Part shown: positions 3 through 37,976 of the stretch, one piece after another
Numbering within the stretch: position 1 is the first letter of the stretch
Layout of the letters: every line of letters begins with the position of its first letter
From: Candidatus Micrarchaeota archaeon
GTDB lineage: Archaea; Micrarchaeota; Micrarchaeia; Anstonellales; Bilamarchaeaceae
Reading direction: 5' to 3'
DNA: 64,000 nt
NCBI GenBank assembly: GCA_043821365.1
Contig: JBDRCX010000003.1
Location: 20,175 to 84,174 of the forward strand
Made by a program: the position numbers and the translations under genes
Notes under the pieces: generated by a model
What the model saw: only the letters and a program-made list of their open reading frames with translations
Told to the model about the DNA's origin: nothing
The model's database searches: none

Positions 3-1079
3 GACCATATTGATCTTGCAGCTGCAAAATCTGTTGGTCTTGATGTATTCAATTGTCCGACTTATTGTTCTGTATCTGTTGCTGAACATGCACTTGCACT
101 TGGGTTCCGTGCTATCTATGGCCCTACAAAATTACCCTCTTTTGCATCTCAAACAGTTATATTTGATCATTTTTCAGATGGATTTGCCGAATCAGCTGTT
201 GCTCAGATTCTTATGCGTTCAAGACAGATGGAAGAGTCAATAACACGAGCAAAAGAATATGATTATGAGCGTGGTGATGCACCATGGAGAAACCACCAAC
301 TAACTGGAAGCACAGTTGCAATAATAGGTCATGATAGAAAAGTGTCTAATTTAGCTAGGATTTTGCGTCTGGGGTTTCAATGTAATTTAGTTGGTTTTGA
401 TTTTGACAGAAACCTAGAAGCATTTGGTGTCCTATCAAGACCACTCGAACTAGTCAGTCACTGTAATTATATTTTCAATTGTTCTGGTGAAGTTGATATT
501 GAAGGTACGAGGATTGATTCAAGATCACTTCCAAAACCAGAAAAAGAATTTACTGGAAGCAATGTTCTAGTTTTAGGGGCAGGGGGAATTGGTTCTATTA
601 TTGCAAGAATAAGCAAATTAGGTTTTGATTGTTCTACTGCTAGTTTGAGTAGAACTGAAAAAAATCCACTTAGTGCTATTGGAGTTAGATATACGTCTAG
701 AATAGAACCTCCACTTGTTGATTCAGATTTTATTTTTATTTGTCTTCCACTTAATGAAGATACAGTTGGCATACTTAGCCAAACCAGATTTGCTGTAATT
801 GGTAGACGTCCAGTTATAGTAAATGTAACAAGAGATGAAATAGTTGATAATCAGGCACTTTACATTGCACTTCAGGATGGTTTGGTACGTGCATATGGTA
901 CTGATGTTCTACCTGATGATAAGGTTCTTTGGGCACGGGGGAATCCAAAAGAACTTACTACAAGGTTTTTAGGACTTGGGAATGTGGTTGCAACTCCACA
1001 CGAAGCAGATTGTTCAAGACAATCTCTTCATAAACTTGTTTCTGAAGTTGAGCAAAGATTAACTAGACTTAATAGATGA
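3..1079 (+). CDS. D-isomer-specific 2-hydroxyacid dehydrogenase family protein, 5' end outside the window
   Basis: Frame 3 is open from nt 3 and runs into tracked ORF 213..1079. DHIDLAAAKSVGLDVFNCPTYCSVSVAEHALAL is a typical family segment. NAD fingerprint VLVLGAGGIGSIIA; VNVTRDEIVD and ATPHEA motifs. A degenerate extra copy of the Rossmann start (TVAIIGHDRKVSNLARIL) precedes the intact one. Confidence 0.7.
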   Translation, partial: DHIDLAAAKSVGLDVFNCPTYCSVSVAEHALALGFRAIYGPTKLPSFASQTVIFDHFSDGFAESAVAQILMRSRQMEESITRAKEYDYERGDAPWRNHQLTGSTVAIIGHDRKVSNLARILRLGFQCNLVGFDFDRNLEAFGVLSRPLELVSHCNYIFNCSGEVDIEGTRIDSRSLPKPEKEFTGSNVLVLGAGGIGSIIARISKLGFDCSTASLSRTEKNPLSAIGVRYTSRIEPPLVDSDFIFICLPLNEDTVGILSQTRFAVIGRRPVIVNVTRDEIVDNQALYIALQDGLVRAYGTDVLPDDKVLWARGNPKELTTRFLGLGNVVATPHEADCSRQSLHKLVSEVEQRLTRLNR

Positions 1080-3076
1080 TATTTATGGGCAAACCAAATA
1101 CAAGACCAGTTTTTAGAGAAGGAAGGCATGGGGAGCGTGCTGTTCATGTAGCTAGAATTAATGGTGTTGTTTTTGACAAAACAGATGTTGGCCAACGAAT
1201 TGCACATTATAGTAGAACACCCTTTGGTAACCCTAGGCCCATAATAGAGGGGCGTTTTGGTGATCCAACATGTTATCCTGGTTTAGGTCCCTATTCTGGT
1301 GTTGAAAGACATGAAGCTAGGGCACGTTTCTATCCACCAAATGTTCATTCTGGTTATGTGATGGGTGGTGATCCAACATTAAAAGAATGGTTACGTCAAG
1401 GTAGGAAAAACGTTGAGGATAAAATCCAGGTACCTGATGGGGTTGGAGTATATATAACTGCAGGTGTTGCCGGTGCATTGCGCTTAATAAGTGATGCAAC
1501 TTTATTTCCACTTGCTTTAGATTTTAATCAAGATCATCTTAATGCGCTTAGAACTAAATTAGATCGCGGTACATTCGATGCACAGGACCAAACCGAACTA
1601 AGTGCTCTTCTAAGGAGATTGCACCAAACCACTCCTGATAATGTTGTAGTTCCAGAATGGACATACCCTTCTCATCTTGCTGAAACCTATCGTGCACATG
1701 GACAAGTAAAAATATGTCCTATTGATAAAAATGGACAGGTTGATCTTGCTAAACTTAAAAAAACCATAGATAAAAATACACGAACAGTTCTATTTGCTAC
1801 TGTTGGAAATCCACTATCAGTTGCAATGGAACCAGAACGTTTTGATGAAATCCTAAGAATTGTAAGTGCAAAAATGAAGGAATATGGACACCCAATCATA
1901 TTAGTTGCTGATACTATTTACGAACCATTTAGGAGACCTGGATCAGTTCGTATCGATCCAATTCAAAGAGCACTTCGTTTGAATAGAGAATTAGATCCAC
2001 CTGCCATAGTGATACAAACTTCAAGTTTTTCAAAAATGATGGCAATCCCAGGTCAACGTGTGGGGTATTTCTGTCTTTATTGGGAAGAAAATTTATTTCC
2101 AAATGAAAGATTCAATCTTCTTAAAGCACTACAGCTTCTCTACAGTCCAACACTCTGTCCAGTATCCCAAAAAACACAGTGGGCTCTTGGTATGCTATAT
2201 AGTGGAATTAATGCAAATGTTCCGTTGGATGAAAAGTTTGTTCCAATTGCAGCTGCTCTATCTGCACTTAAAAGATTAAAAGACAGAAAATCATTAGATC
2301 CAGAAGCACCAGAAGGATTTTATTCTGTTAATACTGACGTATGTGTAACTGCATTTGCTGAGATGAGTGACGAACTTGTAGATGGGGATTATGGATTAAG
2401 AGCGTCATTTCGTGTACAGAAGTTTTTAGATTTATTGAAAGATGTAGTATTTCGTGGAAAACCACTTATCGAAATTAAGGAAGTTGGAGATAAGAAATTC
2501 TATAAATTAGTTGCAGATATCCCGGATCTTCCAGTTGCAACAGAAGACTCTGGTGGCATTCCTTACAATATAACTGGTATAAAACGTAGACTTTATGGTA
2601 CGGTATATCATTCAGATTGGTATGCAATTGCTCTTGCTTGTGGTATTCCTACTGAATGGAATAAATATGAGGACCACAAAACCTATATGAGAGAAACGGT
2701 ATTTTCTAGAACTATGGAATTTGTAAATGCACTTGATGAATTGAGATCCGAAGGAATTTACATTCATCCTGCTTACTATGTGGACGGCGATCCAAGCAAG
2801 GGACTTGATCCAAATAAGATAAATGCATTCTATGTACTTTGGGGAATTGATAAGCTCAGGAGATATGTTCCAGATGGACTTTCACAATCTGCTAGGTTAG
2901 TAGAAGAGTGCGTAAAAGTCGGTGGACCAATGATTGCAAATACTCCTGGAGAGCTTTTCTTACCACCAGAATATCGTAGTGATCAAACATCTTATCAAAG
3001 GCATGTTGCACTTTTAGACTCAGCACATAATAGATTAATGATTGAAACAATAAGAAGAGTGGCAAGACAATTATAA
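1076..3076 (+). CDS. PLP-dependent aminotransferase (class I/II fold), atypically long at 666 aa
   Basis: Fold-type I motifs in the right order: GNPLS, ADTIYEPF, SSFSKMMAIPGQRVGY (Schiff-base Lys). ATGA stop/start overlap with the upstream gene. Long N-terminal extension and a large insertion in the C-terminal domain. Confidence 0.6.
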   Translation: MIFMGKPNTRPVFREGRHGERAVHVARINGVVFDKTDVGQRIAHYSRTPFGNPRPIIEGRFGDPTCYPGLGPYSGVERHEARARFYPPNVHSGYVMGGDPTLKEWLRQGRKNVEDKIQVPDGVGVYITAGVAGALRLISDATLFPLALDFNQDHLNALRTKLDRGTFDAQDQTELSALLRRLHQTTPDNVVVPEWTYPSHLAETYRAHGQVKICPIDKNGQVDLAKLKKTIDKNTRTVLFATVGNPLSVAMEPERFDEILRIVSAKMKEYGHPIILVADTIYEPFRRPGSVRIDPIQRALRLNRELDPPAIVIQTSSFSKMMAIPGQRVGYFCLYWEENLFPNERFNLLKALQLLYSPTLCPVSQKTQWALGMLYSGINANVPLDEKFVPIAAALSALKRLKDRKSLDPEAPEGFYSVNTDVCVTAFAEMSDELVDGDYGLRASFRVQKFLDLLKDVVFRGKPLIEIKEVGDKKFYKLVADIPDLPVATEDSGGIPYNITGIKRRLYGTVYHSDWYAIALACGIPTEWNKYEDHKTYMRETVFSRTMEFVNALDELRSEGIYIHPAYYVDGDPSKGLDPNKINAFYVLWGIDKLRRYVPDGLSQSARLVEECVKVGGPMIANTPGELFLPPEYRSDQTSYQRHVALLDSAHNRLMIETIRRVARQL

Positions 3077-3090
3077 TAAAAATAAAAAAA

Positions 3091-3426
3091 TTATAATGTG
3101 TTCATTAACTCCTGTGTCTTGTAAGTCATAAACAGCATACCGAGACCAAATGTTACTAGACCAACCACGAATAGAATTGTTGCTCCTAATGGGTAACCAG
3201 CTGAACCTTTTTTCTTTGCTGCTTCTTCTACATCACAGAAGAATTTCCATAAGATGTATAGGTTTACAAGCGGAATAAAGCACAACACCAATTGAATAAT
3301 CGGATTATATGTTGCATTTGTAGATGCTTTAAATTCCTCGAACCATTTATACAAAAGATACAGTCCTACAAATGGTATTACCATCATAACTACTGCCATT
3401 ACAGGGCTTCTAGCCATTATTATCAC
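3091..3426 (-). CDS. small integral membrane protein, unknown function
   Basis: 111-aa ORF with about 3 hydrophobic helices and a charged loop (EEAAKKKG). No catalytic motif. Confidence 0.45.
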   Translation of the reverse strand: MIIMARSPVMAVVMMVIPFVGLYLLYKWFEEFKASTNATYNPIIQLVLCFIPLVNLYILWKFFCDVEEAAKKKGSAGYPLGATILFVVGLVTFGLGMLFMTYKTQELMNTL

Positions 3427-3628: not shown

Positions 3629-4223
3629 AACGTGCCATACGTTCAGTTTCGTCTCTTTTCTTAATTGCATAACTTGCTTGCATGTCTCCCTTTGCTGTAG
3701 ACATGATTTCATCTGCAAGTGATTGTGAGAGAGATTTTGCTTTATTGAAAGAACTCATTAATGCAGCAAGAGCCATGTTTCTCAAAGCCATATCTAATCG
3801 TCTTGTTGCTGATACGTCAACTGCAATCTGATAGCTGACACCACCATGAGAAACTCTTGTAACATCTTCTCTTGGAGCAGCATTTTCCAATGCCTTTATA
3901 AGAACTTGAACTGGGTTTTCTTTTGTCTGTTCTTCAACTATTGCAAATGCATCTTCGACAACTTTCAATGCCTTGAGTTTTTTACCTTGCATTCTTCCTT
4001 TTGTTCTAATAACTTTACCAGAGGTTTTTTCACCTGTACCTCCTCTCATAAGTTTGTTTGCAAGTCTCTCAACAACATTTACTTGTGTTTTACCCAAAAC
4101 CTTTTTTGCGTTCCTACCAAATGTGTGTGGAACCATAATTGGGTTAAGAGATATGTTCTGAGCAAGGCTCATGTCCTTTATCACAATATCATTCAATGAA
4201 TATTTACCAAATAATTTATCCAT
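3618..4223 (-). CDS. rps7: 30S ribosomal protein S7 (uS7)
   Basis: 201 aa with typical uS7 sequence (KALENAAPREDVTRVSHGGVSYQIAVDVS). Directly downstream of S12, as in the conserved str cluster. Confidence 0.95.
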   Translation of the reverse strand: MDKLFGKYSLNDIVIKDMSLAQNISLNPIMVPHTFGRNAKKVLGKTQVNVVERLANKLMRGGTGEKTSGKVIRTKGRMQGKKLKALKVVEDAFAIVEEQTKENPVQVLIKALENAAPREDVTRVSHGGVSYQIAVDVSATRRLDMALRNMALAALMSSFNKAKSLSQSLADEIMSTAKGDMQASYAIKKRDETERMARSAR

Positions 4224-4227
4224 TCAA

Positions 4228-4710
4228 TCATCTCTTTGCTTTTTCTTTCTTGCCCTTTCTGAGCATCTGTAGGTCTGTGTTGTTTACTGCAACGACTTTG
4301 TATCTAACACCTGGAATAGAACCCATCTGCCCTCTTTGAGATCCACCAAGACCAGCAAGTAGGACTTCGTCGTGCTCATCAATAAATGTAATTGCCTTGT
4401 CTCTAACAGCGTGTGCAGTCACTACCTTTCCATTTTTAAGAAGCTGACACTTCACACATTTTATAAGTCCAGAGTGAGGCTGCTTTTGCTCAAGAACGAC
4501 TTTTTCAAGTACGATTGCTTTCGCCTGTGGAGCTCCTTCCAGAGGATCAAATTTTTCTTTTAATTTAAGCGTTCGTCTTTTCCATCTTTTGGAGAGCCAC
4601 TTGTGCTTTCTTCTGTTTCTTTTTAAGTTTCTACCTGCGAATTCACCATTACCCATATACACACCTGTTGGTGAATGACCTGATTTGTTCAGGGATCCAC
4701 CATTATCCAT
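4228..4710 (-). CDS. rps12: 30S ribosomal protein S12 (uS12)
   Basis: Typical uS12 core ([32 protein letters not shown]...[11 protein letters not shown]). The true start is probably the ATG at 4656 (M19), preceded by AGGTG. Confidence 0.95.
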
Positions 4711-4859
4711 TAATTTACCTGTAGTAATACGACTATAATTCTAACCTAGCATTTGATAATAGCTAGACTTATTAAGCCATGAACTATCATTGAAGCTTTG
4801 CTTCAAGACATTAAATGGTACTGAGAAGGATTTATAAAGTTTATGAAGTCCTTCTAGCA

Positions 4860-5012
4860 TCACTTTTTAGCTCTGATTTCTCTTCTTTTTGGTCTTAAGT
4901 ACTTAGACCCGCATTTTCTGCATTTATCAACTGTCTTTTTATTTCTCGTCTTGCACTTTTTGCATACGTTAATGCCAGCGAGTTTCAAGTCTGCTTCTGG
5001 AAATTTTCCCAT
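4860..5012 (-). CDS. rpl40e: 50S ribosomal protein L40e (50 aa, below the ORF-track cutoff)
   Basis: My translation of the minus strand is MGKFPEADLKLAGINVCKKCKTRNKKTVDKCRKCGSKYLRPKRREIRAKK*. It has the CxxC...CxxC zinc ribbon and basic tail typical of archaeal L40e. Confidence 0.85.
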   Translation of the reverse strand: MGKFPEADLKLAGINVCKKCKTRNKKTVDKCRKCGSKYLRPKRREIRAKK

Positions 5013-5085
5013 GTTTTTAACACCTAGAGTAGTATTAATAGGTTTAACCTATGCTTAGCATTGTTTTTAAATTTGCTGATCCAGT

Positions 5086-5538
5086 TTGTTATGCTATGGT
5101 GTGCTCATTATGATAGAAGAAAAATCATGTGGTCTGATCCTGTTTAGGGAAATAAATAAGATGCGTCTTTATCTATTACTTAATTATGAGGAAGGACATT
5201 GGGGGTTCCCCAAAGGTCATGTTGAAAAAAATGAAGATGAGATTGAAACTGCTCTTCGTGAAACAATGGAAGAGACAGGAATTACTGAAATAACTATTTT
5301 GCCTAATTTTCATGAATCACTTGTTTATCAATATAGGAAAAATGGCCAGAAATTCCATAAAACTGTCTATTTTTTTATAGGAAAGACAAAAACCGAAAGA
5401 ATTCTCCTTTCACATGAGCATGTTGGTTCGATGTGGTTATCCTATCAAATGGCACGGAAAAAACTCACATTTGATAATACTAAGACGATTCTTGATGCTG
5501 CTGATAACTTCCTTAGTAATCTAGTGGGTAATAAATAA
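5086..5538 (+). CDS. Nudix hydrolase
   Basis: Nudix box GHWGFPKGHVEKNEDEIETALRETMEETGI. Alternative start ATG at 5110. Confidence 0.85.
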   Translation: MLCYGVLIMIEEKSCGLILFREINKMRLYLLLNYEEGHWGFPKGHVEKNEDEIETALRETMEETGITEITILPNFHESLVYQYRKNGQKFHKTVYFFIGKTKTERILLSHEHVGSMWLSYQMARKKLTFDNTKTILDAADNFLSNLVGNK

Positions 5539-5553
5539 CCTATCCATCATATC

Positions 5554-6078
5554 ATGTATATGCGATTTGAACGCATTACATCCGAATCCTTCGTATTCGA
5601 TGCAGTAAAAGAAATTTACGAATCTTCTTTTCCTCCTGAAGAAAAAAGAGAACTTAACAAAGATCTTTTTGATAGGAAGAACTATTCTTTGTTAACTGCA
5701 ATTGAGGATGAACCAGTTGGTTTTATCTCTGTTTGGGATTTTGGTAATTTTGTTTTTATTGAACATTTTGCAGTTAAAAAACAACTTCGTGATCAAGGCA
5801 TTGGAACTAGAATGCTTAGTAAATTTTTAGACGATCATCCAGATGTAATACTTGAAATTGAAAGACCAAAAACAGAAGAACAGTATATGCGGATAAAATT
5901 CTATAAGCAAATAGGGTTTCATCTGAATAATTACCAGTATGTACAACCACCATATGGTCCTGAGAAACCACCTGTAAATATGTTCATAATGAGCTATCCA
6001 AAAGCATTATCTGACAACGAATTTTCAAATATAAAAAAGAGAATATATTCTACTGTTTATGGTATTGTTTCAAAATAA
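5554..6078 (+). CDS. GNAT-family N-acetyltransferase
   Basis: Acetyl-CoA binding motif IEHFAVKKQLRDQGIGTRML, and a size typical of GNAT. Confidence 0.75.
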   Translation: MYMRFERITSESFVFDAVKEIYESSFPPEEKRELNKDLFDRKNYSLLTAIEDEPVGFISVWDFGNFVFIEHFAVKKQLRDQGIGTRMLSKFLDDHPDVILEIERPKTEEQYMRIKFYKQIGFHLNNYQYVQPPYGPEKPPVNMFIMSYPKALSDNEFSNIKKRIYSTVYGIVSK

Positions 6079-6104
6079 ATAACACTAGAAATTATAAATG
6101 TCGG

Positions 6105-6485
6105 ATGTATTTACTTACTAGTGGTCTTGTGAAGTCTATTTTATTTATTTTTCTAATTATTGGAGCGGTCTTTGCTAACGCAGATCCATGCTGGGATCAG
6201 ACTAGACCGTGTGCACAATCTTGTTGTCCAAAAATAGGTGGAACATGGTCTGATTTTGAAGATGATTGTTTGATAGATGAAAATTATACTGATGAAGAAA
6301 CATTACAATTATTACAACAACATTGCCCCAATTGTTTCAATTCATATGCTATTTGTATTAACAATACAGAAATAGATTATTCTAGCATCCCCTCGCCAAC
6401 TACTAATTGTTGTGGACCAGCATTTATTTTTGCCAGTCTGGTTATATCCATTTTCTTCGTGAAAAATGCAGGGAGCAGGATTTGA
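6105..6485 (+). CDS. small Cys-rich secreted or membrane-anchored protein
   Basis: N-terminal hydrophobic signal, 10+ Cys, and a C-terminal hydrophobic anchor (GPAFIFASLVISIFFV). The last ~18 nt overlap tRNA-Leu on the opposite strand. Confidence 0.45.
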   Translation: MYLLTSGLVKSILFIFLIIGAVFANADPCWDQTRPCAQSCCPKIGGTWSDFEDDCLIDENYTDEETLQLLQQHCPNCFNSYAICINNTEIDYSSIPSPTTNCCGPAFIFASLVISIFFVKNAGSRI

Positions 6486-6552
6486 ACCTGCGCAGGTACT
6501 AAACCACAGCGTCCTAAGCGCTGCACATTTGACCAGACTCTGTCATCCCTGC
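6467..6552 (-). tRNA. tRNA-Leu (anticodon UAG), no intron
   Basis: Minus strand reads GCAGGGA..CAGCG-CTTAGGA-CGCTG..long variable arm..GCAGG-TTCAAAT-CCTGC-TCCCTGC-A. Full cloverleaf with 7-bp acceptor stem. Confidence 0.9.
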
Positions 6553-6692
6553 ATCGTGAAAATCAGCAGATTTTCGCGAATCTTAAACGGCGAACCGTTC
6601 AAGTACTAATTAAAATTTCCAAAGGAAATTTTGACTGCTTTAAAGTCCATAGGTTTCAAAGACTACTTAGAGTCTGAAGGACTTTGGGTACA
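6553..6692 (-). other. structured spacer between the mre11 stop and the tRNA-Leu 5' end
   Basis: Hairpins at 6558-6575 (7 bp), 6612-6632 (9 bp) and 6655-6678. Helix 6642-6648/6679-6685 encloses the last one. Confidence 0.4.
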
Positions 6693-7808
6693 TTACTGAC
6701 TAGTATCTTTTTTATTATGTTTCTCCAAGTATTCTAAAGTTTTTTCTGGTCCTTCTATCAACTTTTCAAACAAATCAGCACCGTCAAACATGGTTATTTT
6801 TTCCTCTGTTTTTTTCTTAAGTTCGCGAATTGCAACTTCTCTAATTGATAAATTCACATCTCTGGCATTTTTTATTCTTTCAATTTTTGCTGCTAAGTTT
6901 TCCTCATTTAATCTATTTTCAATGTAAACATTCTCATATCCGTCTAACCTGATATCCGAGTTATTTAATCCCTGTTTTAATTTCCCATCAATCTTTACTG
7001 CAATTATGGCATCCTTATGGTCCTTTCTTATACTATCAATGACTTCTCTTACTTTTTCTCTTATGTCCATTTCACTAGCTTCTTCAAATTTCAACTCTTC
7101 ATAGAAAAATTTCCTGGTTGGTACTTGTACAAATTCTGATTTTTTCGTTTGTGTGTCATATATATAATATCCTTTTGGTGCAGTTTCATCCTTTTTTAGT
7201 TGTGTTATTACTGTGCTTCCTGGGATCAAAAACCGTCCATCTAATTTTGTTATTGTTTCGTGTATGTGTCCATTTATTATCAAGTGAAAAGGAAGAGTTT
7301 CAAGATATTCTAAAGAAAGCTCTTCAGTTGCTCCAGGTGCAAGTTCTTTTATCGATTGATGGAGAATTAGAACTCTACATGCATCATCCTTTTTGGTGAA
7401 TTTTTGCATAACTGTTTTAAGTGCAGTTTCTGCATATTCTTCTGGAACACTTCCCATACCAAAAATCTGTATTTTTTCATTATCTTTTTCAAATAACTCT
7501 TCAGAACCATGCAATAGTCTCAATCTGGTTCCTGAAGCAAGTAATTGCACTGGGTTTACCATGTCTTTTGCACGTCTTTCATGATTGCCATGAATTGCAT
7601 AGATGGGTACATTTGTTTTATTGAAAATTTCCATTGCTCTTTTTATTGTTTCTAATTTTGGAATTTTAACGTCAAATATATCTCCTGCACAAATTATAAT
7701 ATCAGATTTTCCAGATGCATCTAAAATCACTCTTTCTGCTTGAATATAGCTATCCTCTTCGAATCTTGCATATCCTAAGTGCGGATCAGAAAAAATAGCT
7801 ATTTTCAT
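6693..7808 (-). CDS. mre11: Mre11/SbcD-type DNA repair exonuclease
   Basis: Calcineurin-like phosphoesterase motifs in order: FSDPHLG, CAGDIFD, IHGNHE, GHIHE. Confidence 0.85.
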   Translation of the reverse strand: MKIAIFSDPHLGYARFEEDSYIQAERVILDASGKSDIIICAGDIFDVKIPKLETIKRAMEIFNKTNVPIYAIHGNHERRAKDMVNPVQLLASGTRLRLLHGSEELFEKDNEKIQIFGMGSVPEEYAETALKTVMQKFTKKDDACRVLILHQSIKELAPGATEELSLEYLETLPFHLIINGHIHETITKLDGRFLIPGSTVITQLKKDETAPKGYYIYDTQTKKSEFVQVPTRKFFYEELKFEEASEMDIREKVREVIDSIRKDHKDAIIAVKIDGKLKQGLNNSDIRLDGYENVYIENRLNEENLAAKIERIKNARDVNLSIREVAIRELKKKTEEKITMFDGADLFEKLIEGPEKTLEYLEKHNKKDTSQ

Positions 7809-7840
7809 GTAAATAGAATAAATGTAAAAGAAAATAAAAA

Positions 7841-9351: not shown

Positions 9352-9469
9352 GGGCCCGTAGCTCAGCCAGGCTAGAGCGTTCGACTGATAAAAACTTTTT
9401 TGGAAAAAAAGTTTTACAAAAAACTTATCAGTGATCGAAAGGTCATGAGTTCAAATCCCATCGGGCCCA
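9352..9469 (+). tRNA. tRNA-Ile (anticodon GAU) with a ~43-nt intron 3' of the anticodon
   Basis: GGGCCCG..GCTC-AGCCAGGCTA-GAGC-G-TTCGA-CTGATAA[intron 9392-9434]TCGAA-AGGTC-ATGAG-TTCAAAT-CCCAT-CGGGCCC-A. The intron contains a hairpin at 9392-9415 and a segment complementary to the anticodon arm (BHB-compatible). Followed by T5. Confidence 0.85.
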
Positions 9470-29830: not shown

Positions 29831-31267
29831 ATGTTCTCTATAAAAAATTTCTCACTTTTATTTTTGATTGTAAGTGTCTTTCTACTGTTTGGTTGTTTTT
29901 TTCCAAACACGCCTTCAGATAATGGACTACCTTCGAATCATCTAACAAATCAATCTAAGAATAATACTATGAAACCGCCACTACCCAATACTAGTATTAA
30001 ATCTAATATTGTTGATGTAAATATTCCATCGTCAAGTGGTAATGGGACAATTGCAGTTCGTCTTCAAATACCAAACAAAACTAGATATTCTGATGGTGCA
30101 CCAGTTGTCATATGGATTTCTGGTGGCTATGATGGTGGCGGACTCAATCATGGTTTTGCTTCAGAATTAGACGATACAGCAGTAATTACATTTCTTTTTC
30201 CTGGTATAGAGGATCCATGGGCAGGAATTAAGTCTGATGGTGTTTATGATTATCGTGGTGAGAATTGTATTATCTCACTTAAAGATGTAATTCTCTATGC
30301 AGCTGGAGAAAAAACAGACAATCTTAACCGTACTATTGATGAAATTTCAAACATTGATATTCTTCATAATAATATTGGGTTAGTTGGTTCATCAAATGGT
30401 GGCAACATAATAGTTGCTCTACCTGCGTTTTATGGTGATGAACTTGTTGGTCATTTGCGCTATGTTATCCAATGGGAAACACCAGTTTCAAGTCAAATAG
30501 CGAATCGTGATTTTGGTAGAGTCTGGCTTAAACCAGCAACTGGACAAGGTGATTATTTCAATCCACGTTATTCTGGTTATGGCCCACTTATTCTTGGTTC
30601 AAATTATAGTGATCTTACTTACAATCCGAGTTATTCATATTACACTATATTCCATGATGGTAATGGTGATGGTCAATATACTACTGTCTCAGTAGCTGGT
30701 AAAGACCTTCCTGATCTTGATGGAAACGGAAAACTTGAACTTAATGAAGATTTCCCACTTGATTACTATCCTGGTGGAGAGAATGGTACAATCCTCTTCT
30801 ATTCCCGTCCAGTAACTTATGCAATGGAAGAAATGAATATCTTCAATGGTTCTTGGCCTTCAAATATTGCAACACCAGAGCAAGCAGATGAGTATTGGGA
30901 TTTGAGAGAGTCAGTTGTTCTATATGATGATGCAATTGCAAATATGCCAGATCTTGAAGCCATGGTTTTAGCAGGCGAAGTTGATCATGTTCAATCCTCA
31001 TATGATAAGTTCAATATCCAACAAGCTTTTGGTGGATTAATGAAAGCAAATGTATCCTGGGTTCAAATAAATCCAAGTAGTAGCTATCTTACTTCAATTA
31101 ACCCGCTTTACAGCAATAGGAATGATCTTCCAGATAATCAGCCATTCACATCGCCGACAAATTGGAAGAATTTCTCATCATACACCATTCCTGCTGATGT
31201 TTTCAAAGGATTTTATCAATCTGCATCAGTCTGGCAGATGGCTGATAGAGCGCATAATAACAATTAA
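29831..31267 (+). CDS. secreted/lipobox-type protein with an alpha/beta-hydrolase-like nucleophile elbow
   Basis: Signal ending LLFGC; GLVGSSNGG (GxSxG-like). Confidence 0.4.
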   Translation: MFSIKNFSLLFLIVSVFLLFGCFFPNTPSDNGLPSNHLTNQSKNNTMKPPLPNTSIKSNIVDVNIPSSSGNGTIAVRLQIPNKTRYSDGAPVVIWISGGYDGGGLNHGFASELDDTAVITFLFPGIEDPWAGIKSDGVYDYRGENCIISLKDVILYAAGEKTDNLNRTIDEISNIDILHNNIGLVGSSNGGNIIVALPAFYGDELVGHLRYVIQWETPVSSQIANRDFGRVWLKPATGQGDYFNPRYSGYGPLILGSNYSDLTYNPSYSYYTIFHDGNGDGQYTTVSVAGKDLPDLDGNGKLELNEDFPLDYYPGGENGTILFYSRPVTYAMEEMNIFNGSWPSNIATPEQADEYWDLRESVVLYDDAIANMPDLEAMVLAGEVDHVQSSYDKFNIQQAFGGLMKANVSWVQINPSSSYLTSINPLYSNRNDLPDNQPFTSPTNWKNFSSYTIPADVFKGFYQSASVWQMADRAHNNN

Positions 31268-32064: not shown

Positions 32065-33054
32065 ATGCCAAAAAATCAGACAGAGTCCAGAAAAAAAGAC
32101 CATGTTGATCTAGTTGTTGATGATGGAGCACAATATGCAAAAACAACTGGATTCGAACGTATGGATTTTGTCCATAATGCATTGCCAGAAATATCTCTTC
32201 AATCAGTTGATCTTTCAACAAAGTTCTTCAATAAAAAAATCAAATATCCAATTCTAATAACTGGAATGACTGGTGGGTATTCTGATGCTGAAAAAATCAA
32301 TAGACAACTAGCAGCAGCTGCACAGAAATACGGTCTTGCATTTGGTGTTGGTTCACAAAGAGCAATGATCGAAAAACCAGAATTAGCAAAAACATATAAA
32401 GTTCGTGATGTTGCTCCAGATATTCCATTACTCTCCAATATCGGTGCATTTCAACTTAAGAAATATTCAACCAAACAAATTGAATCATTGGTTCAAGATA
32501 TCGAGGCAGATGCTCTTGCAATCCATCTTAATGCACTTCAAGAGGTTATCCAACCAGAAGGCGATACTGATTTTACTGGAATTTTAGCTGCAATAGAGAA
32601 AACATGTGACGGATTGTCAGTTCCTATTATTGTTAAGGAAACTGGTGCAGGCCTTAGTCAGGATGTTGCAATTGCATTGAAAAAAGCAGGTGTGAAATAT
32701 TTGGATGTTGCAGGAGCAGGTGGAACATCCTGGAGTGTTGTTGAATATCTTCGTGGTGGTGGTGTTCCTGGTTTTGAAAACTGGGGGATTCCAACTGCTG
32801 AATCAATAATCCAATGTAAGGGAGTTCTGCCAATAGTTGCTACTGGTGGAATCAGAACTGGTGTTGATGGTACAAAAGCAATAGCTCTTGGTGCAGATAT
32901 GTGTGGTGCAGCCTACCCATTCATCAAATCATTAAAGAAAAACAAACTAAATCAATTTATAGAGATTTTTGAGAAGCAAATGGCAATATCAGCTTATCTT
33001 ACTGGTTCTAAAACTATTTCTGATCTAAAAAAGGCCAAACTTCGATTTTTGTAA
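32065..33054 (+). CDS. fni: type 2 (FMN-dependent) isopentenyl-diphosphate isomerase
   Basis: KKDHVDL N-terminus, ITGMTGG, VGSQRA, KETGAG and AGAGGTSW motifs. Confidence 0.85.
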   Translation: MPKNQTESRKKDHVDLVVDDGAQYAKTTGFERMDFVHNALPEISLQSVDLSTKFFNKKIKYPILITGMTGGYSDAEKINRQLAAAAQKYGLAFGVGSQRAMIEKPELAKTYKVRDVAPDIPLLSNIGAFQLKKYSTKQIESLVQDIEADALAIHLNALQEVIQPEGDTDFTGILAAIEKTCDGLSVPIIVKETGAGLSQDVAIALKKAGVKYLDVAGAGGTSWSVVEYLRGGGVPGFENWGIPTAESIIQCKGVLPIVATGGIRTGVDGTKAIALGADMCGAAYPFIKSLKKNKLNQFIEIFEKQMAISAYLTGSKTISDLKKAKLRFL

Positions 33055-33168
33055 CACTTATTTAAAAACTTACTACCATATTCTAACATTCAATGTACCT
33101 TAGTGGCTAAACTCTTAGATTTAGTGCTAAAAGTAGTATTTAAATAATGTTATAAACAGTGTATATAC

Positions 33169-34788
33169 ATGCAAAGAGTAGAAAAAATGCTAGCTCAGCG
33201 ATCGCATTGGCCTCCTCAGCTTCAAGCATCAGCTAGAAGGTGGGCTGATTGTTATGCCAAGTTCGGTGGCCAAGATGCATTTTCCCATCCACTCCGTGTT
33301 CTTGACCGTGCAATAGACCATGATATGGTTGAACTGCATAAAATTGGGGATAGGCGGGTAGATCCTAAACAACTTAATCTTAAACTAGCGAACATCATAC
33401 TCGGACATATATTTAGACATGGAAGAAATAATCGGAGAGATTTCCCATCAGAAGACTTTGAAAGAAGCCAGCTGACCATGAGTGGATTTGAAATTTTTGA
33501 TGCATTAAGGGAGAATGATCTTAGTGCAATGTCACGGGCTAGATATGGTGAACTTTTAGAAACTCCATCGCTCGGCACATTAGCAAGATGTATTGATGTT
33601 GCACAATATGGGCCAGATGGACTTACTTCTGAAGGTGAACTTGCTAACTTAGATCCAAATATTTTCTACCGATTCAGTCCATATACAGGTAAAAGTGAAT
33701 ATGAACATATAGCTCGCGTTGCAAGAATGGTTTATGCACCTCTATGTGATCTTTTCAGTTATAGAAAATTAGCTGGAGATTTGATGCAAATGTCCTATTA
33801 CCATCTTGATCGTGGGATTTATGATGATGTAAATCTGTATTTAAAACTTCTAGAAACTAAAATTGCTGCAACTCAGAGACTTATGGAGGCAGTACTTCTC
33901 CAATTAAAAGAGAGACTGGATAGTGCTGGTTATAGGTATGATATAATCTTTAGAGAACAAAAACATCCTGGGAAAGTTATGGAGAAGGTTGACAGGTATT
34001 CGCGTGGTGATGGCCTTTCAACCGAAACACATATTGAATCGCTTAGTGATCTTGTTGCTTTTACTGTTGTTTTACACTCAAAAAAAGATGGTAATGGTGG
34101 TAAGGTTATTACACAAAATGATCTTGATGATTTTGAATTTGTAGCAAAATCTATAGTTGAAATCGTATCGGGATTGAAAAAATTACGTAATAATAATTAC
34201 AGCGCTAGTCTTTTTACTGATAGAATCACTAATCCTAAAGAAAGTGGATACCAGTCCTATCATGTTGACATGGCATTTGAAGACCATAGTTTAGTTGGGC
34301 TTGAAGCAATAGTACGAAATACCATAATGCATACATATGCCGAACGAGGTGGTGCAGCCCATCATCTATTCAAAGGAGGGGCTGGATTAACAAAAACAGT
34401 TGAAAAAGCTTACAGGAATATCAAAGATGCAATTGCAGGGGGTCAAAATCCAAATGACACTGACCGATCAGTTTCTTATCAAAGAATTCAATTTGTTGTT
34501 CCAGGTTCTGAACCATATCTGCGCATTGTTCCGGGAGGTGCATCAGTTGGAGAAGCTCTTATTTGCGGTGGCATCAGCCTATTTGATAGACTTTCCATTG
34601 ATCCACCAAGATCAATTTTTGATCAAATTCGTGGTACTTCAGAATTACGTTTAGTTACGTCTGGTTATCCTCTTGTTGCTAATGAACAAATTCTAAGAGA
34701 GCTTCAAATGATGGCAATTAATCCATCTACTGCACGTGAAATTCATGGTTTAATAAGAGAACTAAGACTTACTCCTAGATCTCCTTGA
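33169..34788 (+). CDS. RelA/SpoT homologue: degenerate HD region + (p)ppGpp-synthetase domain + TGS domain
   Basis: REQKHPGKVMEKVDRY (RxKxxxSxxxK-like), SDLVAFTVVL, KESGYQSYHVDM (GYxSxH), LEAIVRNTIMHTYAERGGAAHHLFKGG (EIQIRT..MH..AE.G.AAHW.YK-like), TGS-like IQFVVPGSEPYLRIVPGGASVGEAL. The N-terminus keeps HPLRV but lacks the HD dyad. Confidence 0.7.
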   Translation: MQRVEKMLAQRSHWPPQLQASARRWADCYAKFGGQDAFSHPLRVLDRAIDHDMVELHKIGDRRVDPKQLNLKLANIILGHIFRHGRNNRRDFPSEDFERSQLTMSGFEIFDALRENDLSAMSRARYGELLETPSLGTLARCIDVAQYGPDGLTSEGELANLDPNIFYRFSPYTGKSEYEHIARVARMVYAPLCDLFSYRKLAGDLMQMSYYHLDRGIYDDVNLYLKLLETKIAATQRLMEAVLLQLKERLDSAGYRYDIIFREQKHPGKVMEKVDRYSRGDGLSTETHIESLSDLVAFTVVLHSKKDGNGGKVITQNDLDDFEFVAKSIVEIVSGLKKLRNNNYSASLFTDRITNPKESGYQSYHVDMAFEDHSLVGLEAIVRNTIMHTYAERGGAAHHLFKGGAGLTKTVEKAYRNIKDAIAGGQNPNDTDRSVSYQRIQFVVPGSEPYLRIVPGGASVGEALICGGISLFDRLSIDPPRSIFDQIRGTSELRLVTSGYPLVANEQILRELQMMAINPSTAREIHGLIRELRLTPRSP

Positions 34789-35308
34789 ATTCAGTAAGTC
34801 TAGTTATAACATTCAAAACCATGTTTGTATTTGTTTTTTCTACACCAGAAACTGCAAGTATCTTTTTTACTGTTGAACTGAGTTCACCGCGTGTTTTACA
34901 CATAACAACTGCAATTGCATCATATCCACCAGTTGTATCCCATACTGCTGCCACATGTGGTATTTTTGCCACCTTTCCTTCTATCTGCAGTAAATCCTTT
35001 CCTGAGATGCTTATATCTACAACTGCCATAAATTCAAAGCCTAGTTTGTTGTAATCCAGTTTAGCCCCATACCCAGTTATGTATTCTGATTCTTCGAGAG
35101 ATTTTACTCTTTCTATTATTGCAGTTGTTGACATTCCAATATCCTTTGCAAGTTTTCGATAGGAACGTTTTGAATTTTTTACTAATTCCCCAAGTAGTCT
35201 TTTGTCCATTTCGTCCAGTTTTCTTGTAATATTTTTCATATAAACCAAACATTTGTATGTAATATTTATATATTTATTGGACATTTGTTTGGTTAAAAAC
35301 CATTTCAC
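34775..35308 (-). CDS. Lrp/AsnC-family transcriptional regulator
   Basis: LDEMDKRLLGELVKNSKRSYRKLAKDIGMSTTAIIERVKSLEESEYI. Probable start at 35239. Its 3' end overlaps the RSH gene by 14 nt (convergent). Confidence 0.8.
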   Translation of the reverse strand: MKWFLTKQMSNKYINITYKCLVYMKNITRKLDEMDKRLLGELVKNSKRSYRKLAKDIGMSTTAIIERVKSLEESEYITGYGAKLDYNKLGFEFMAVVDISISGKDLLQIEGKVAKIPHVAAVWDTTGGYDAIAVVMCKTRGELSSTVKKILAVSGVEKTNTNMVLNVITRLTEFKEI

Positions 35309-35381
35309 AAGCTTTTTAATCTTTGTTTTCTTATTTTAACAAATATTTGGGAGTTTTTAGTTTAATTTGGGAGGTTTTATT

Positions 35382-36725
35382 ATGGAATTTAAAGAAGTTA
35401 CTGACGAAGAAATATTGGAAAGAGTTGCGAAAGACAATGTAAAATTTGTGAATCTGCAATTCACTGATCTTTTTGGTGTTGTTAAGAATGTTACAATTAC
35501 TTCTGAACATCTTGAAGATTCACTCGAAAGTGGAACCTGGTTTGATGGCTCTTCAATCGAAGGGTTTGCAAGAATCCATGAAAGCGACATGTTTTTGAAA
35601 CCAGATAAAGACACGTATGTTTCAATCCCATGGTTACATTCTGCTGATGGTAATACTGCGAGGTTGATTTGTGATATATATAACGCAGATGGAAAGCCGT
35701 TTGAGGGAGCTCCAAGAACAATTCTAAAAAAAGTATTAGCAGAAGCAAAAGAACTTGGATATGAATATAATACTGGACCAGAACTAGAATTTTTTCTTTT
35801 CAAAAAAGAGAATTGTAAATTGCAACCACTTCCACATGATAAGGGTGGCTATTTTGATTTAAGTATGGATCATGCCTATGAAATAAGAAGAGACATGGCC
35901 ATAGCATTAGGAAAATTTGGTATAGCTGTTGAAGCACTTCATCATGAAGTTGCGGTTGGTCAGCATGAGATTGATTTTAGATATGGTGATGCTCTAAAAA
36001 CTGCTGATAATGCAACAACAATGCGATATGTAGTGAAAGCTGTTGCAGAAAAACATGGTTTACATGCTACTTTTATGCCAAAGCCAATTACGGGTATAAA
36101 TGGCAGTGGTATGCACATCCATCAGAGTCTTTTCAAAGATGATGTCAATCTATTCTTTGATGGGTCTGATTCTCATAACATGTCTTCACTTGCAAAAAAT
36201 TTCATTGCCGGACAATTGAAACATATTCGTGGTATGTGTGCGATAACTTCACCCACAGTCAATTCATACAAAAGGCTTACTCCGGGGTATGAAGCCCCAG
36301 TTTATTTAAGCTGGGCAAGAACAAATCGTTCTGCATTAATTCGTGTGCCTGCCATCAAGAAAGATAAGCCAAAAGCTGCTCGTATTGAATTACGTTGCCC
36401 AGATCCATCCTGCAATATTTATCTTGCATTTGCAATAATGTTAAAGGCTGGCCTGGATGGAATAAAGAATAAACTTGAACCACCAGTACCTGTAGAAGAA
36501 GATCTTTATGAGTTTGATGATAATAAACTTTCAAAACTCAATATTGCACAACTTCCCTATTCTTTATTTGAGGCAACAAAAGAAATGAAAAAGAGTGAGC
36601 TTGTAAAAGATGTTCTGGGAGAAACAACTTTCAACAAGTATATTCATGCAAAGATTTCTGAATGGGATGAGTACAGATTACAAGTTACCGAGTGGGAGCT
36701 TGATCGCTATCTGGAAAGTTATTGA
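35382..36725 (+). CDS. glnA: glutamine synthetase type I
   Basis: Typical GS sequence (FTDLFGV..., GSGMHIHQSL, NSYKRL, RIELRCPD). The ATG at 35382 is preceded by GGGAGG. The track start at 35367 is TTG. Confidence 0.95.
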   Translation: MEFKEVTDEEILERVAKDNVKFVNLQFTDLFGVVKNVTITSEHLEDSLESGTWFDGSSIEGFARIHESDMFLKPDKDTYVSIPWLHSADGNTARLICDIYNADGKPFEGAPRTILKKVLAEAKELGYEYNTGPELEFFLFKKENCKLQPLPHDKGGYFDLSMDHAYEIRRDMAIALGKFGIAVEALHHEVAVGQHEIDFRYGDALKTADNATTMRYVVKAVAEKHGLHATFMPKPITGINGSGMHIHQSLFKDDVNLFFDGSDSHNMSSLAKNFIAGQLKHIRGMCAITSPTVNSYKRLTPGYEAPVYLSWARTNRSALIRVPAIKKDKPKAARIELRCPDPSCNIYLAFAIMLKAGLDGIKNKLEPPVPVEEDLYEFDDNKLSKLNIAQLPYSLFEATKEMKKSELVKDVLGETTFNKYIHAKISEWDEYRLQVTEWELDRYLESY

Positions 36726-37610
36726 AATAGTTCAGTGGTGAAATATCTCTCTCCATTATCTGGAAGTAGGGAAATCACTATTCCTTTTATTTTTTTCGCA
36801 GTTTGAATTGCAGCCCACATTGATGCCCCACTACTAATGCCAACCAATATACCTTCTTTTTTTGCTAAATTTCTTGCAGTTTCAAAAGCATCATTGTCAC
36901 TAACATAGATTATTTCATCTACTTCTTTTCTATTGAATATTTTTGGAACAATTGATGTTTGCATATTTTTTAACCCCTGAATCTTATGGTTTGGGTATGG
37001 TTCTGCTGCAATAATTTTAATTTCTGGATTTTTTTCTCTTAGTAATTTTCCAACTCCCATAACTGTTCCTCCAGTTCCAATACCAGAAACAAATGCCCTT
37101 ATTTCACCGTCAGTCTGTTCCCATATTTCATTTGCTGTTTGTGCATAATGTGCCAATGGGTTGTTTTCATTGGAATATTGATCTGGCATAAAATATTTTT
37201 CTGGATTTTTTTCTAATTTTTTATTTGCAAGATTTATGGCCCCATCAATCCCAAGTTCTGCTGGTGTTAATGTTATCTTTGCACCAAATGCAGTCATTGC
37301 TTTTCTTCGTTCCAAACTTGCATTTTCTGGCATAACTATTTCAATTTGGTACCCTCTCACTGCACCAATCATGGCAAGAGCTATACCAGTATTTCCAGAT
37401 GATGCTTCAATTACAATTCGATTTTTTATCAAATCCAATTTTTCTGCAGCTTCAATCATTTTCTGAACAGGACGATCTTTTATGCTGCCACCAGGATTTC
37501 TACCTTCTAATTTTGCGTATAATTCGTTTTCACTTAATCTATTTATTCTAACTAACGGAGTCCATCCTATTGTCTCCAGTATGTTAGCAGGCCAACCACC
37601 TATTTTTCAT
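36719..37610 (-). CDS. cysK: cysteine synthase / O-acetylserine sulfhydrylase family, with an apparent frameshift at the start
   Basis: GGSIKDRP, SSGNTGIALA and GIGTGGT motifs. The conserved N-terminus (NILETIGWTPLVRINRL...GGSIKDRPVQ) lies upstream of the first in-frame ATG (37459). The only upstream ATG (37610) is one base out of frame across an A5 run. Confidence 0.75.
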
Positions 37611-37850: not shown

Positions 37851-37976
37851 CGGGCCCAGAGGGATTTGAACCCTCGACCTGCGGATTCCACCTTTTACCA
37901 AAAAGTGGAGCCAAAAGTGGCTCTCCATTTGATAAAATTAAAAGTCCGACGCTCTACCAAGCTGAGCTCTGGGCCC
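37851..37976 (-). tRNA. tRNA-Lys (anticodon UUU) with a ~52-nt intron 3' of the anticodon
   Basis: Minus strand reads GGGCCCA-GA-GCTC-AGCTTGGTA-GAGC-G-TCGGA-CTTTTAA[intron]TCCGC-AGGTC-GAGGG-TTCAAAT-CCCTC-TGGGCCC-G. The intron carries two hairpins (GAGCC/GGCTC and CCACTTTTT-GGT-AAAAGGTGG). Confidence 0.85.

Follow-up and report, generated by a model that had tools for sequence, protein, structure and literature searches.

How a long RelA/SpoT homologue (RSH) came to lie among the housekeeping genes of an archaeon, and whether it could still produce a nucleotide alarmone there, is the question raised by one gene of a Candidatus Micrarchaeota archaeon. The 64,000 nucleotides analysed, referred to here as the window (C3:20175-84174), belong to a genome of 1.2 Mb in 6 contigs, which was 87% complete with approximately 36% G+C. 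NCBI taxonomy places the phylum (Microcaldota) within the DPANN kingdom Nanobdellati. The open reading frame (ORF) occupies exactly positions 33169..34788 of the forward strand and encodes 539 amino acids (AA) plus a stop codon. The original prediction, made from the DNA letters, had taken it for a horizontally acquired, compositionally foreign alarmone synthetase. The best explanation of the present results is a vertically inherited, truncated long RSH which is probably active, works solely as an alarmone synthetase and has a remodelled pocket for ATP.

The Pfam search of the predicted protein revealed a RelA_SpoT domain (PF04607) at residues 264-403 with a score of 41.5 bits, above the gathering threshold of 27 (E 1.8e-10), and no other PF04607 match was present in the genome. 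The NCBIfam model spoT_relA was matched at E 4.8e-13, yet far under its full-length cut-off, and a PDB search with the single sequence gave weak matches to RelSeq and E. coli RelA (E ~1e-3). A profile of 29 homologues (alignment A1) matched E. coli RelA best (E 1.1e-16), followed by RelSeq (4.7e-15) and the small alarmone synthetases (SAS; 1e-5 to 1e-3). Comparison of A1 with 21 aligned bacterial long RSHs (A3) using hhalign gave a probability of 99.9% and E 2.9e-32, with family positions 179-537 corresponding to Rel 164-490, a span that runs from the three-helix bundle through SYNTH and the TGS region to the first post-TGS helix. The AlphaFold2 model built with A1 (predicted local distance difference score, pLDDT, 86.6; predicted template-modelling score, pTM, 0.80) was compared with the PDB using Foldseek. 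The best match was B. subtilis Rel 6yxa, a construct of HD, SYNTH, TGS and AH (E 1e-11, 557 columns, template-modelling score, TM, 0.50), and the further top matches, including full-length SpoT 7qpr and ribosome-bound RelA 5iqr, were exclusively long RSHs. Crystal structures of the HD and SYNTH domains of Rel from S. aureus, T. thermophilus, S. equisimilis, M. tuberculosis and B. subtilis could be aligned over 400-430 columns with target-normalised TM of 0.6-0.73, while SAS structures formed the next tier (E ~2e-3).

These matches bear out the RelA/SpoT homology that had been read from the sequence, and all of the synthetase motifs quoted at that time were found in the translation, namely REQKHPGKVMEK (262-273), SDLVAFTVV (293-301), GYQSYHVDM (360-368) and EAIVRNTIMHTYAERGGAAHHLFKGG (379-404). 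The protein is a member of the RSH superfamily, in which the SYNTH domain, the Mg2+-holding Asp/Glu with the phosphate-binding cluster, and the G-loop are all present. It is not of the SAS type; about 250 residues precede the SYNTH domain and about 125 follow it, both parts being folded and conserved. Its identification as a long-RSH-type protein, composed of a degenerate hydrolase domain, a synthetase and a TGS-like domain, is supported. Pfam and NCBIfam gave no HD, HD_4, TGS or ACT match on the target, and the domains flanking SYNTH were therefore assigned by fold and by profile-profile comparison (Table 1). The HD-like and SYNTH domains are joined by a three-helix bundle, the hallmark of long RSHs, with model helices at 176-195, 199-213, 215-227 and 229-252, and its segment YAPLCDLFSYRKLAGDL corresponds to IYAPLAxRLG.

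The residues of the SYNTH active site were mapped using the hhalign register and a clade-wise tally, and their roles were taken from the SaRelP-AMPCPP structure, where Arg78 and Arg112 stack on the adenine, Lys80/Lys88/Arg91 and Ser84 contact the phosphates, and Asp107 and Glu174 hold Mg2+ (PMC5794853). The spacing in the target matches that of SaRelP, with R262/T299 at Arg78/Arg112, K265/K273 at Lys80/Lys88, K269 at Ser84 and D294/E379 at Asp107/Glu174. In the 29 homologues of A1, D294, E379, R262, K265 and K273 were invariant, and they were also kept across 67 members of the wider divergent clade, which includes the core family of the target, a subgroup of 450-480 AA and a third subgroup. 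The G-loop, R383 and AAH (396-398) were likewise invariant or nearly so in A1. The acceptor G-loop, P356-K357-x-x-G360-Y361-Q-S363-x-H365, reads PKESGYQSYH in the target against PKxNGYQSxH. Mg2+-dependent pyrophosphoryl transfer to the 3'-OH of a purine nucleotide is probably retained, as judged from these residues.

Two residues typical of RSHs, the second adenine-stacking Arg and the conserved Gln of E-x-Q-x-R-T, are lacking in the target. At the Arg position (T299), 19 of 23 core members carry Thr, whereas 30 of 31 sequences of the 450-480-AA subgroup have Arg or Lys and 54 of 55 canonical RSHs have Arg; at the Gln position (I381), 20 of 23 core members carry Ile, compared with Gln in 61/61 canonical sequences. 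In addition, K269 stands in place of the Ser contacting the alpha-phosphate and N384 in place of Thr, and the RXKD/EXDD position reads LFTD. The donor pocket is thus remodelled, and affinity or donor choice may therefore differ. It had been claimed that both the Gly and the Arg of a DxxGxR motif were changed. This holds for the Arg, which is Thr here, but the supposed Gly is Ala in canonical long RSHs too (A267, nearly invariant in A3). The accompanying suggestion that donor binding or product may differ gains support from the changed Arg of D-x-x-[G/A]-x-R.

These substitutions (T299, I381, K269 and LFTD) would also fit an active enzyme that has another product owing to its remodelled nucleotide pocket, whether it made (pp)pApp, used a donor other than ATP, or modified some other 3'-OH such as the tRNA CCA end. 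Some toxSAS enzymes pyrophosphorylate the tRNA CCA end. The absence of an HD_4 hydrolase from most genomes that have strong orthologues would also fit, and RSH enzymes with other products are known (bioRxiv 10.1101/2021.04.30.441581). The acceptor G-loop of the target, including the stacking Y361 and H365, is nevertheless canonical and the changes lie mainly on the donor side, while a toxin-like role agrees poorly with the stable housekeeping synteny, in which no antitoxin-like partner was seen. An altered product is hence considered rather unlikely.

In the N-terminal domain, the motif register places H40 (of HPLRV, 40-44) at the first His, H80 at the His of LLHD, and LLARxxDxA at KLADRLHNM; the counterpart of the last motif in the 450-480-AA relatives is KLADYAVTHN. 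Three of the four canonical metal ligands (H40, H80 and D143) are retained. The Asp of the HD dyad (I81 in the target) and the ED pair were absent in nearly all aligned members of the divergent clade, one sequence reading HD. The observation that HPLRV is kept and the HD dyad lacking had been made earlier and proved correct, since the aligned position reads H80-I81; the H51-D52 pair of the target is not a conserved dyad, D52 being variable in A1. When the N-terminal 182 residues were compared alone by hhalign, the match was in the expected register but weak, the probability being 0.3% for A1 and 11.9% for A2, an alignment wider than A1 (E 0.0025). The assignment of an HD fold is supported by the fold and the motif register, for which sequence alone was insufficient.

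An HD fold joined to SYNTH through the three-helix bundle is the arrangement of long RSHs, and the target has it. The functional hydrolase motifs (H...HD...ED...D) are missing, the state also seen in RelA-type [hS] members; because these share it, the loss does not exclude membership among long RSHs. The N-terminal domain was conserved to the same degree as SYNTH, with a mean column entropy of 1.49 against 1.44 and 36 columns in each at 90% conservation or above, and both halves are therefore under selection. The N-terminal domain is accordingly functional, and the simplest role for it is that of a regulatory pseudo-hydrolase like the one in RelA. The earlier suggestion of a possibly synthetase-only, RelA-like enzyme is supported as probable by the missing dyad Asp and ED pair.

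A bifunctional enzyme, whose N-terminal part would act as a non-canonical hydrolase with a metal site formed by H40, H80 and D143 plus D65 or D117, could account for the three retained ligands, for the invariant or near-invariant residues of A1 (H40, R43, D65, H80, R114, N116, D117, R140, D143, E155 and E157), for the conservation of the domain, and for the nine other sampled genomes that carry strong family matches without a separate HD_4 protein. The dyad Asp and ED pair absent from nearly the whole divergent clade are needed for hydrolysis by Rel, however, Pfam gave no HD or HD_4 match, and an allosteric or regulatory role like that of the RelA pseudo-hydrolase explains the conservation equally. 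Bifunctionality is thus judged very unlikely.

The search for a separate hydrolase revealed one HD_4 protein in the genome, a small alarmone hydrolase (SAH) of 140 AA at C6:568403-568825 (locus L002, 1483..1905, +; HD_4 43.8 bits), which has the motifs HP, HD and D..N and begins 6 nt past the gene for tyrosyl-tRNA synthetase. In the PDB it was most closely matched by small (p)ppApp and (p)ppGpp hydrolases, by Mesh1 and by the HD domains of Rel. The gene is convergent with a glutamine amidotransferase (guaA-like) gene. Among 301 genomes sampled across the phylum, 38 contained both SYNTH and HD_4, 47 SYNTH only, 22 HD_4 only and 194 neither, giving an odds ratio of 7.1 that is not corrected for phylogeny. 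Among the 10 genomes that matched the family profile most strongly (E 1e-127 or better), which include diverged versions with a tblastn identity to the target of only 32-46% for some, HD_4 was found in the target genome only (1/10). A regular pairing of the RSH with a small alarmone hydrolase, considered as a candidate rule, thus held only partly, with co-occurrence across the phylum and one in ten of the best-matching genomes. Turnover in the other nine may possibly be provided through genes missing from incomplete metagenome-assembled genomes (MAGs; 83-94%), through other hydrolases, or through activity of the N-terminal domain. At locus L045, a 385-AA HD_4 protein (553..1710, -) lies between L11 and the FAD/NAD oxidoreductase, four genes from a divergent RSH of 664 AA, and may be a local hydrolase partner.

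The region following SYNTH forms, in the model, strands at 437-443, 450-455, 475-478 and 492-497 with a helix at 460-466. Foldseek matched this C-terminal part to beta-grasp domains of the ubiquitin/UBX type, and the alignment with 6yxa runs full length. The hhalign comparison of the TGS region alone was weak (E 0.0015, probability 17%) and in the expected register. The TGS-like segment described in the original prediction is therefore confirmed as a beta-grasp fold at the right place, without a Pfam TGS match and with weak profile similarity when taken by itself. A deletion of about 9 residues is located where bacterial TGS has DFAYxIHxxVG, a segment which contains the His that reads the tRNA CCA end. 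The C-terminal helices align to the first post-TGS helix of bacterial Rel; the protein ends approximately 40 residues past the beta-grasp, and no ZFD or ACT/RRM follows the tail, nor was there a Pfam ACT match. The tail was less conserved than the catalytic half (mean identity 36% vs 53%). A family hidden Markov model of the tail matched 20 of 23 sequences in the core family, 2 of 13 in the third subgroup and 1 of 31 in the 450-480-AA subgroup; from this pattern the tail was apparently present in the ancestor of the divergent clade and disappeared from the short forms.

Whether the gene is native could be assessed by composition. Its G+C content was 0.383 against 0.357 +/- 0.024 for 919 genome ORFs (z 1.1), with z 1.56 at first codon positions (GC1), while third positions (GC3) were at 0.208 against 0.247 for the genome (z -1.05). 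The mean log-likelihood of its synonymous codons under genome usage fell at the 29th percentile (z -0.49). Compared with the genome, Arg (z 1.85) was the one amino acid to stand out, with His at z 1.08 and Ala, Gly and Pro each below z 0.35. The G+C excess is an effect of protein composition, namely Arg, and not a sign of transfer. The richness in G+C and in Arg, Ala, Gly, His and Pro described earlier is therefore a weak claim, and the label of compositionally foreign is not supported for a gene with native GC3 and synonymous codon usage.

A TATA-like (g)tttaaa(t/a)a box was found in 10 of 12 orthologous loci, about 19-32 nt before the predicted start (mostly 19-26). This implies a private archaeal promoter with a presumably leaderless or near-leaderless mRNA, shared with the orthologues. 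Two related palindromes, TTAGTGGCTAA and TTTAGTGCTAAA (33100-33131, 5' of the box), were not seen upstream in 11 orthologous loci, and the box was the only upstream element conserved among orthologous loci.

Synteny was compared across 16 Micrarchaeota loci from distinct genomes (L018-L033). The order of fni and RSH followed by a convergent AsnC gene was kept in 11 of them, with GlnA beyond in 9 of those 11, and the genes for L11, the FAD/NAD oxidoreductase and a membrane protein precede fni in the syntenic loci wherever the contig reaches. Across the syntenic loci the RSH was 38-52% identical to the target, compared with 66-74% for fni and 70-81% for L11. The closest relative (58% identity) has the same genes nearby in a rearranged order, with AsnC and GlnA not beside the RSH. 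Because the synteny is conserved, a chimeric contig, which had been raised as a concern, is excluded. At L044 and L045 the same slot is occupied by members of the third divergent subgroup. As judged from these comparisons, this is an old locus, vertically inherited with duplication and rapid divergence.

Several loci showed additional RSH genes. In L033 the slot from fni to AsnC/GlnA holds two paralogues of 471 and 481 AA (3831..5246 and 5394..6839), and in L016/L017 it holds a tandem 436-AA paralogue and the orthologue (L016 4660..5970 and 6001..7590). Tandem, very divergent paralogues of 436-481 AA without the TGS tail also occupied this slot in two further genomes (G275 C32, ~5137-7983; G180 C48). 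In L044, a gene for eRF1 with an intein and a LAGLIDADG endonuclease domain (360..3092, -) adjoins the block of membrane-protein, fni and RSH genes.

An exhaustive search of 1.84 billion representative sequences gave 153 matches at E <=0.001 and 17 at <=1e-30, with typical bacterial long RSHs of 700-750 AA appearing first at ~1e-6 and weaker. The named close homologues were all from Candidatus Micrarchaeota/Micrarchaeia MAGs. A maximum likelihood (ML) tree of the three-helix bundle and SYNTH was constructed from 77 sequences under LG+C20; it is unrooted, without a SAS outgroup, and its bootstrap was not fully converged. In this tree a branch of length 0.8 with 100/99 support separates the canonical long RSHs, bacterial and those of the Micrarchaeota family f18, from the core family of the target, monophyletic at 97/89, which lies on the opposite side with the 450-480-AA group and the third group. 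The target family was thus found outside the canonical long RSHs and within Micrarchaeota, in a well-sampled archaeal clade of vertical descent, a placement that the original prediction had itself named as speaking against it. Searching the 301 genomes with the A1 profile gave matches in 51, including 19 of 22 of the target's genus, while Pfam RelA_SpoT was found in 85 and HD_4 in 60.

Canonical Rel proteins of 648-652 AA with HD_4, RelA_SpoT, TGS and ACT_4 were observed in family f18 (loci L038-L041 of genomes G274, G093, G168 and G051). An example is L039 97..2055 (-). The f18 Rel has a native AT-rich composition and nests among bacterial long RSHs (96/80). This indicates that f18 Rel would be a separate transfer and that the RSH genes of the phylum have at least two origins.

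Recent acquisition of a bacterial alarmone synthetase that is still compositionally foreign, as the original prediction had it, can be weighed against these results. Long RSHs are nearly universal in bacteria, and in archaea only a few SAS and SAH genes were listed and no long RSHs (Atkinson et al. 2011, PMC3153485); the G+C of the gene is slightly above the genome mean, and the f18 Rel demonstrates that transfers into the phylum happen. Such an acquisition is still highly improbable, given the low GC3, the typical codon usage and the Arg origin of the G+C excess, the promoter shared with orthologues, a slot kept in 11 of 16 loci at 38-52% identity, named relatives that are all Micrarchaeota, the lack of any bacterial sequence closer than about E 1e-6, and the 100/99 branch between the family and all canonical long RSHs. 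An ultimate bacterial origin is plausible and would be ancient, which the unrooted tree does not show.

That the protein is a catalytically dead regulatory pseudoenzyme or a defence toxin of the toxSAS/CapRel type is extremely improbable, as its fast evolution (RSH 38-58% identity vs 60-88% for neighbours), the tandem paralogues in some genomes and one weak PADLOC match (PDC-S33) are opposed by invariant Mg2+ ligands, phosphate-binding residues and G-loop and by a fixed position among ribosomal and central-metabolism genes with no mobile-element or antitoxin context seen, and the toxin/defence candidate was dropped because the PADLOC match (E 0.0013) was not significant and the housekeeping neighbourhood is fixed.

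Taken jointly, that the family is Micrarchaeota-specific and consists of vertically inherited, fast-evolving truncated long RSHs, and that the target is an active synthetase-only enzyme, is considered probable. The enzyme would be a RelA-like monofunctional pyrophosphokinase which transfers the beta,gamma-pyrophosphate of ATP to the 3'-OH of GDP/GTP or a close analogue, and the product would be a (p)ppGpp-type alarmone. Its ATP pocket would be remodelled by replacement of the adenine-stacking Arg with Thr, the alpha-phosphate Ser with Lys, and the Gln with Ile. Control by deacylated tRNA on the ribosome is improbable because the His-bearing TGS helix is deleted and ZFD and RRM are absent; control may instead be exerted via the conserved pseudo-HD and TGS-like domains and via transcription from the gene's own promoter. 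In the target genome the product could be removed by the separate 140-AA hydrolase. The conserved pairing with the convergent Lrp/AsnC gene and glnA could equally be read as inherited synteny.

Several points weigh against this explanation. (p)ppGpp is undescribed in any archaeon, and archaea seldom have RSH enzymes (PMC10249747). Throughout the family, other residues stand in place of one of the two adenine-stacking Arg and of the conserved Gln, and donor, acceptor or rate may differ from those of classical enzymes. The TGS assignment rests on the modelled fold and on weak profile similarity. An alarmone accumulating without a hydrolase would be unusual, and 9 of the 10 best-matching genomes were without a recognisable HD_4 protein. 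The tree, being unrooted, does not distinguish a clade from a grade among the divergent Micrarchaeota groups, nor does it reveal the origin of the family.

Signalling by (p)ppGpp is considered to belong to bacteria and plastids. Comparative genomics of DPANN archaea has attributed the RelA/SpoT genes of Diapherotrites, Woesearchaeota, Pacearchaeota and Nanoarchaeota to acquisition from bacteria, with Micrarchaeota unlisted (PMC8407392), and full-text literature searches found no description of a Micrarchaeota RSH family. The homologues were annotated as 'hypothetical protein', as 'ppGpp synthetase/RelA/SpoT-type nucleotidyltransferase' and once as 'bifunctional (p)ppGpp synthetase/hydrolase'. 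The interest of the family is tempered by such pipeline labels and by the RelA/SpoT proteins already known in other DPANN phyla. It lies in the occurrence of RelA_SpoT in 85 of 301 genomes of one archaeal phylum, with a target clade that is vertical, positionally fixed and selected in both halves, and in active-site substitutions which, being family-wide, provide a natural experiment on donor-nucleotide recognition by RSHs. The target is a defined protein for assay and makes archaeal alarmone signalling directly testable. A wider proposal, in which a lineage of long-RSH descendants, vertically kept in much of the Micrarchaeota, runs a genuine alarmone system and the target subfamily, with its remodelled donor pocket and strongly conserved non-canonical HD domain, has an altered product or donor specificity or is a self-contained, dyad-free synthetase/hydrolase, is tentative and on balance unlikely; if such a system were true, archaea would for the first time have a nucleotide alarmone pathway of their own.

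Table 1. Features of the RSH gene, its predicted protein and its neighbours (positions in the window)
Feature	Position	Strand	Evidence
RSH gene, truncated long RelA/SpoT homologue	33169..34788	+	Pfam, PDB profile, AlphaFold2/Foldseek, hhalign
Degenerate HD (pseudo-hydrolase), residues 1-178	33169..33702	+	Foldseek, motif register, weak hhalign
Central three-helix bundle, residues 179-252	33703..33924	+	PDB profile, hhalign (Rel 164-240)
SYNTH (RelA_SpoT), residues 253-412	33925..34404	+	Pfam, A1 invariant columns, clade tally
Linker helix, poorly conserved, residues 413-435	34405..34473	+	Model, conservation
TGS-like beta-grasp, residues 436-500	34474..34668	+	hhalign register, model, Foldseek
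Two C-terminal helices, residues 501-539	34669..34785	+	Model, hhalign
TATA-like box (tatttaaata), ~25 nt 5' of ATG	33137..33146	+	Sequence and orthologous loci
fni, FMN-dependent type-2 isopentenyl diphosphate (IPP) isomerase-like; conserved upstream neighbour	32065..33054	+	
Lrp/AsnC-family regulator, convergent with RSH	34775..35239	-	Orthologous loci
GlnA, glutamine synthetase; divergent from Lrp/AsnC; part of conserved neighbourhood	35367..36725	+	

The genes around the RSH are archaeal housekeeping genes, encoding ribosomal protein L11, the FAD/NAD oxidoreductase, the fni-like FMN enzyme, Lrp/AsnC, glutamine synthetase and a PALP enzyme. The Lrp/AsnC gene likely starts at the ATG at 35239 (MKNITRKLDEMDKRLL...), giving about 154 AA as in the orthologues, and its convergent overlap with the 3' end of the RSH gene is 14 nt (34775..34788); an abutting or overlapping convergent layout of the two genes was kept in orthologous loci. 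Between the FAD/NAD oxidoreductase and a 247-AA membrane protein lies a gene for a predicted secreted or lipoprotein-like protein of 478 AA (29831-31267, +), which had no Pfam match and did not occur at that position in the orthologous loci examined. The PALP (cysteine synthase-like) ORF at 36719-37459 (-) is 246 AA long and the Pfam profile was matched only from its position 52, so that the ATG-bounded ORF seems to lack its N-terminus and may contain a frameshift or have an upstream start. Three tRNAs were identified by Rfam in the window, two of which, 118 nt (9352-9469, +) and 126 nt (37851-37976, -) long, were missed by ARAGORN; introns are presumed in both, which suggests agreement with an archaeal genome.

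Compared with known systems, the target shares with the bacterial bifunctional Rel (6yxa, RelSeq 1vj7 and T. thermophilus 6s2t) the order of HD fold, three-helix bundle, SYNTH, beta-grasp and helices (Rel ~1-550), together with the catalytic Asp/Glu, the Arg/Lys cluster and the G-loop. It differs in its low identity of 12-18%, in the loss of the HD-dyad Asp and the ED pair, in the Arg to Thr, Gln to Ile and Ser to Lys changes, in a TGS without the His-bearing helix segment, and in having neither ZFD nor ACT/RRM; the canonical f18 Rel of Micrarchaeota, by contrast, has ACT_4. E. coli RelA (5iqr, 5kpv), an [hS] long RSH, resembles the target in keeping a degenerate hydrolase folded and conserved before an active-looking synthetase. 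RelA, however, has 744 AA with full TGS, AH, ZFD and RRM binding the ribosome and deacylated tRNA, and carries EXDD, whereas the target is without this C-terminal half and reads LFTD; as a gamma/beta-proteobacterial duplicate of Rel, RelA is unrelated by descent to the target clade in the ML tree. The single-domain RelP/RelQ (6fgk, 5ded), tetramers of approximately 200 AA, have the same SYNTH fold and catalytic residues but no HD fold, three-helix bundle or beta-grasp. The target has its phylum, the fni to AsnC/GlnA slot, the pseudo-HD pattern (H...H...D, no dyad Asp) and its side of the deep split in common with the 450-480-AA Micrarchaeota RSHs without C-terminal domains (for example the 471- and 481-AA proteins of L033; P0044 and P0051). 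Identity between these and the target is only 22-27%; they are without the TGS-like tail, which 1 of 31 possesses, and keep the canonical Arg/Lys at T299 and Gln at I381.

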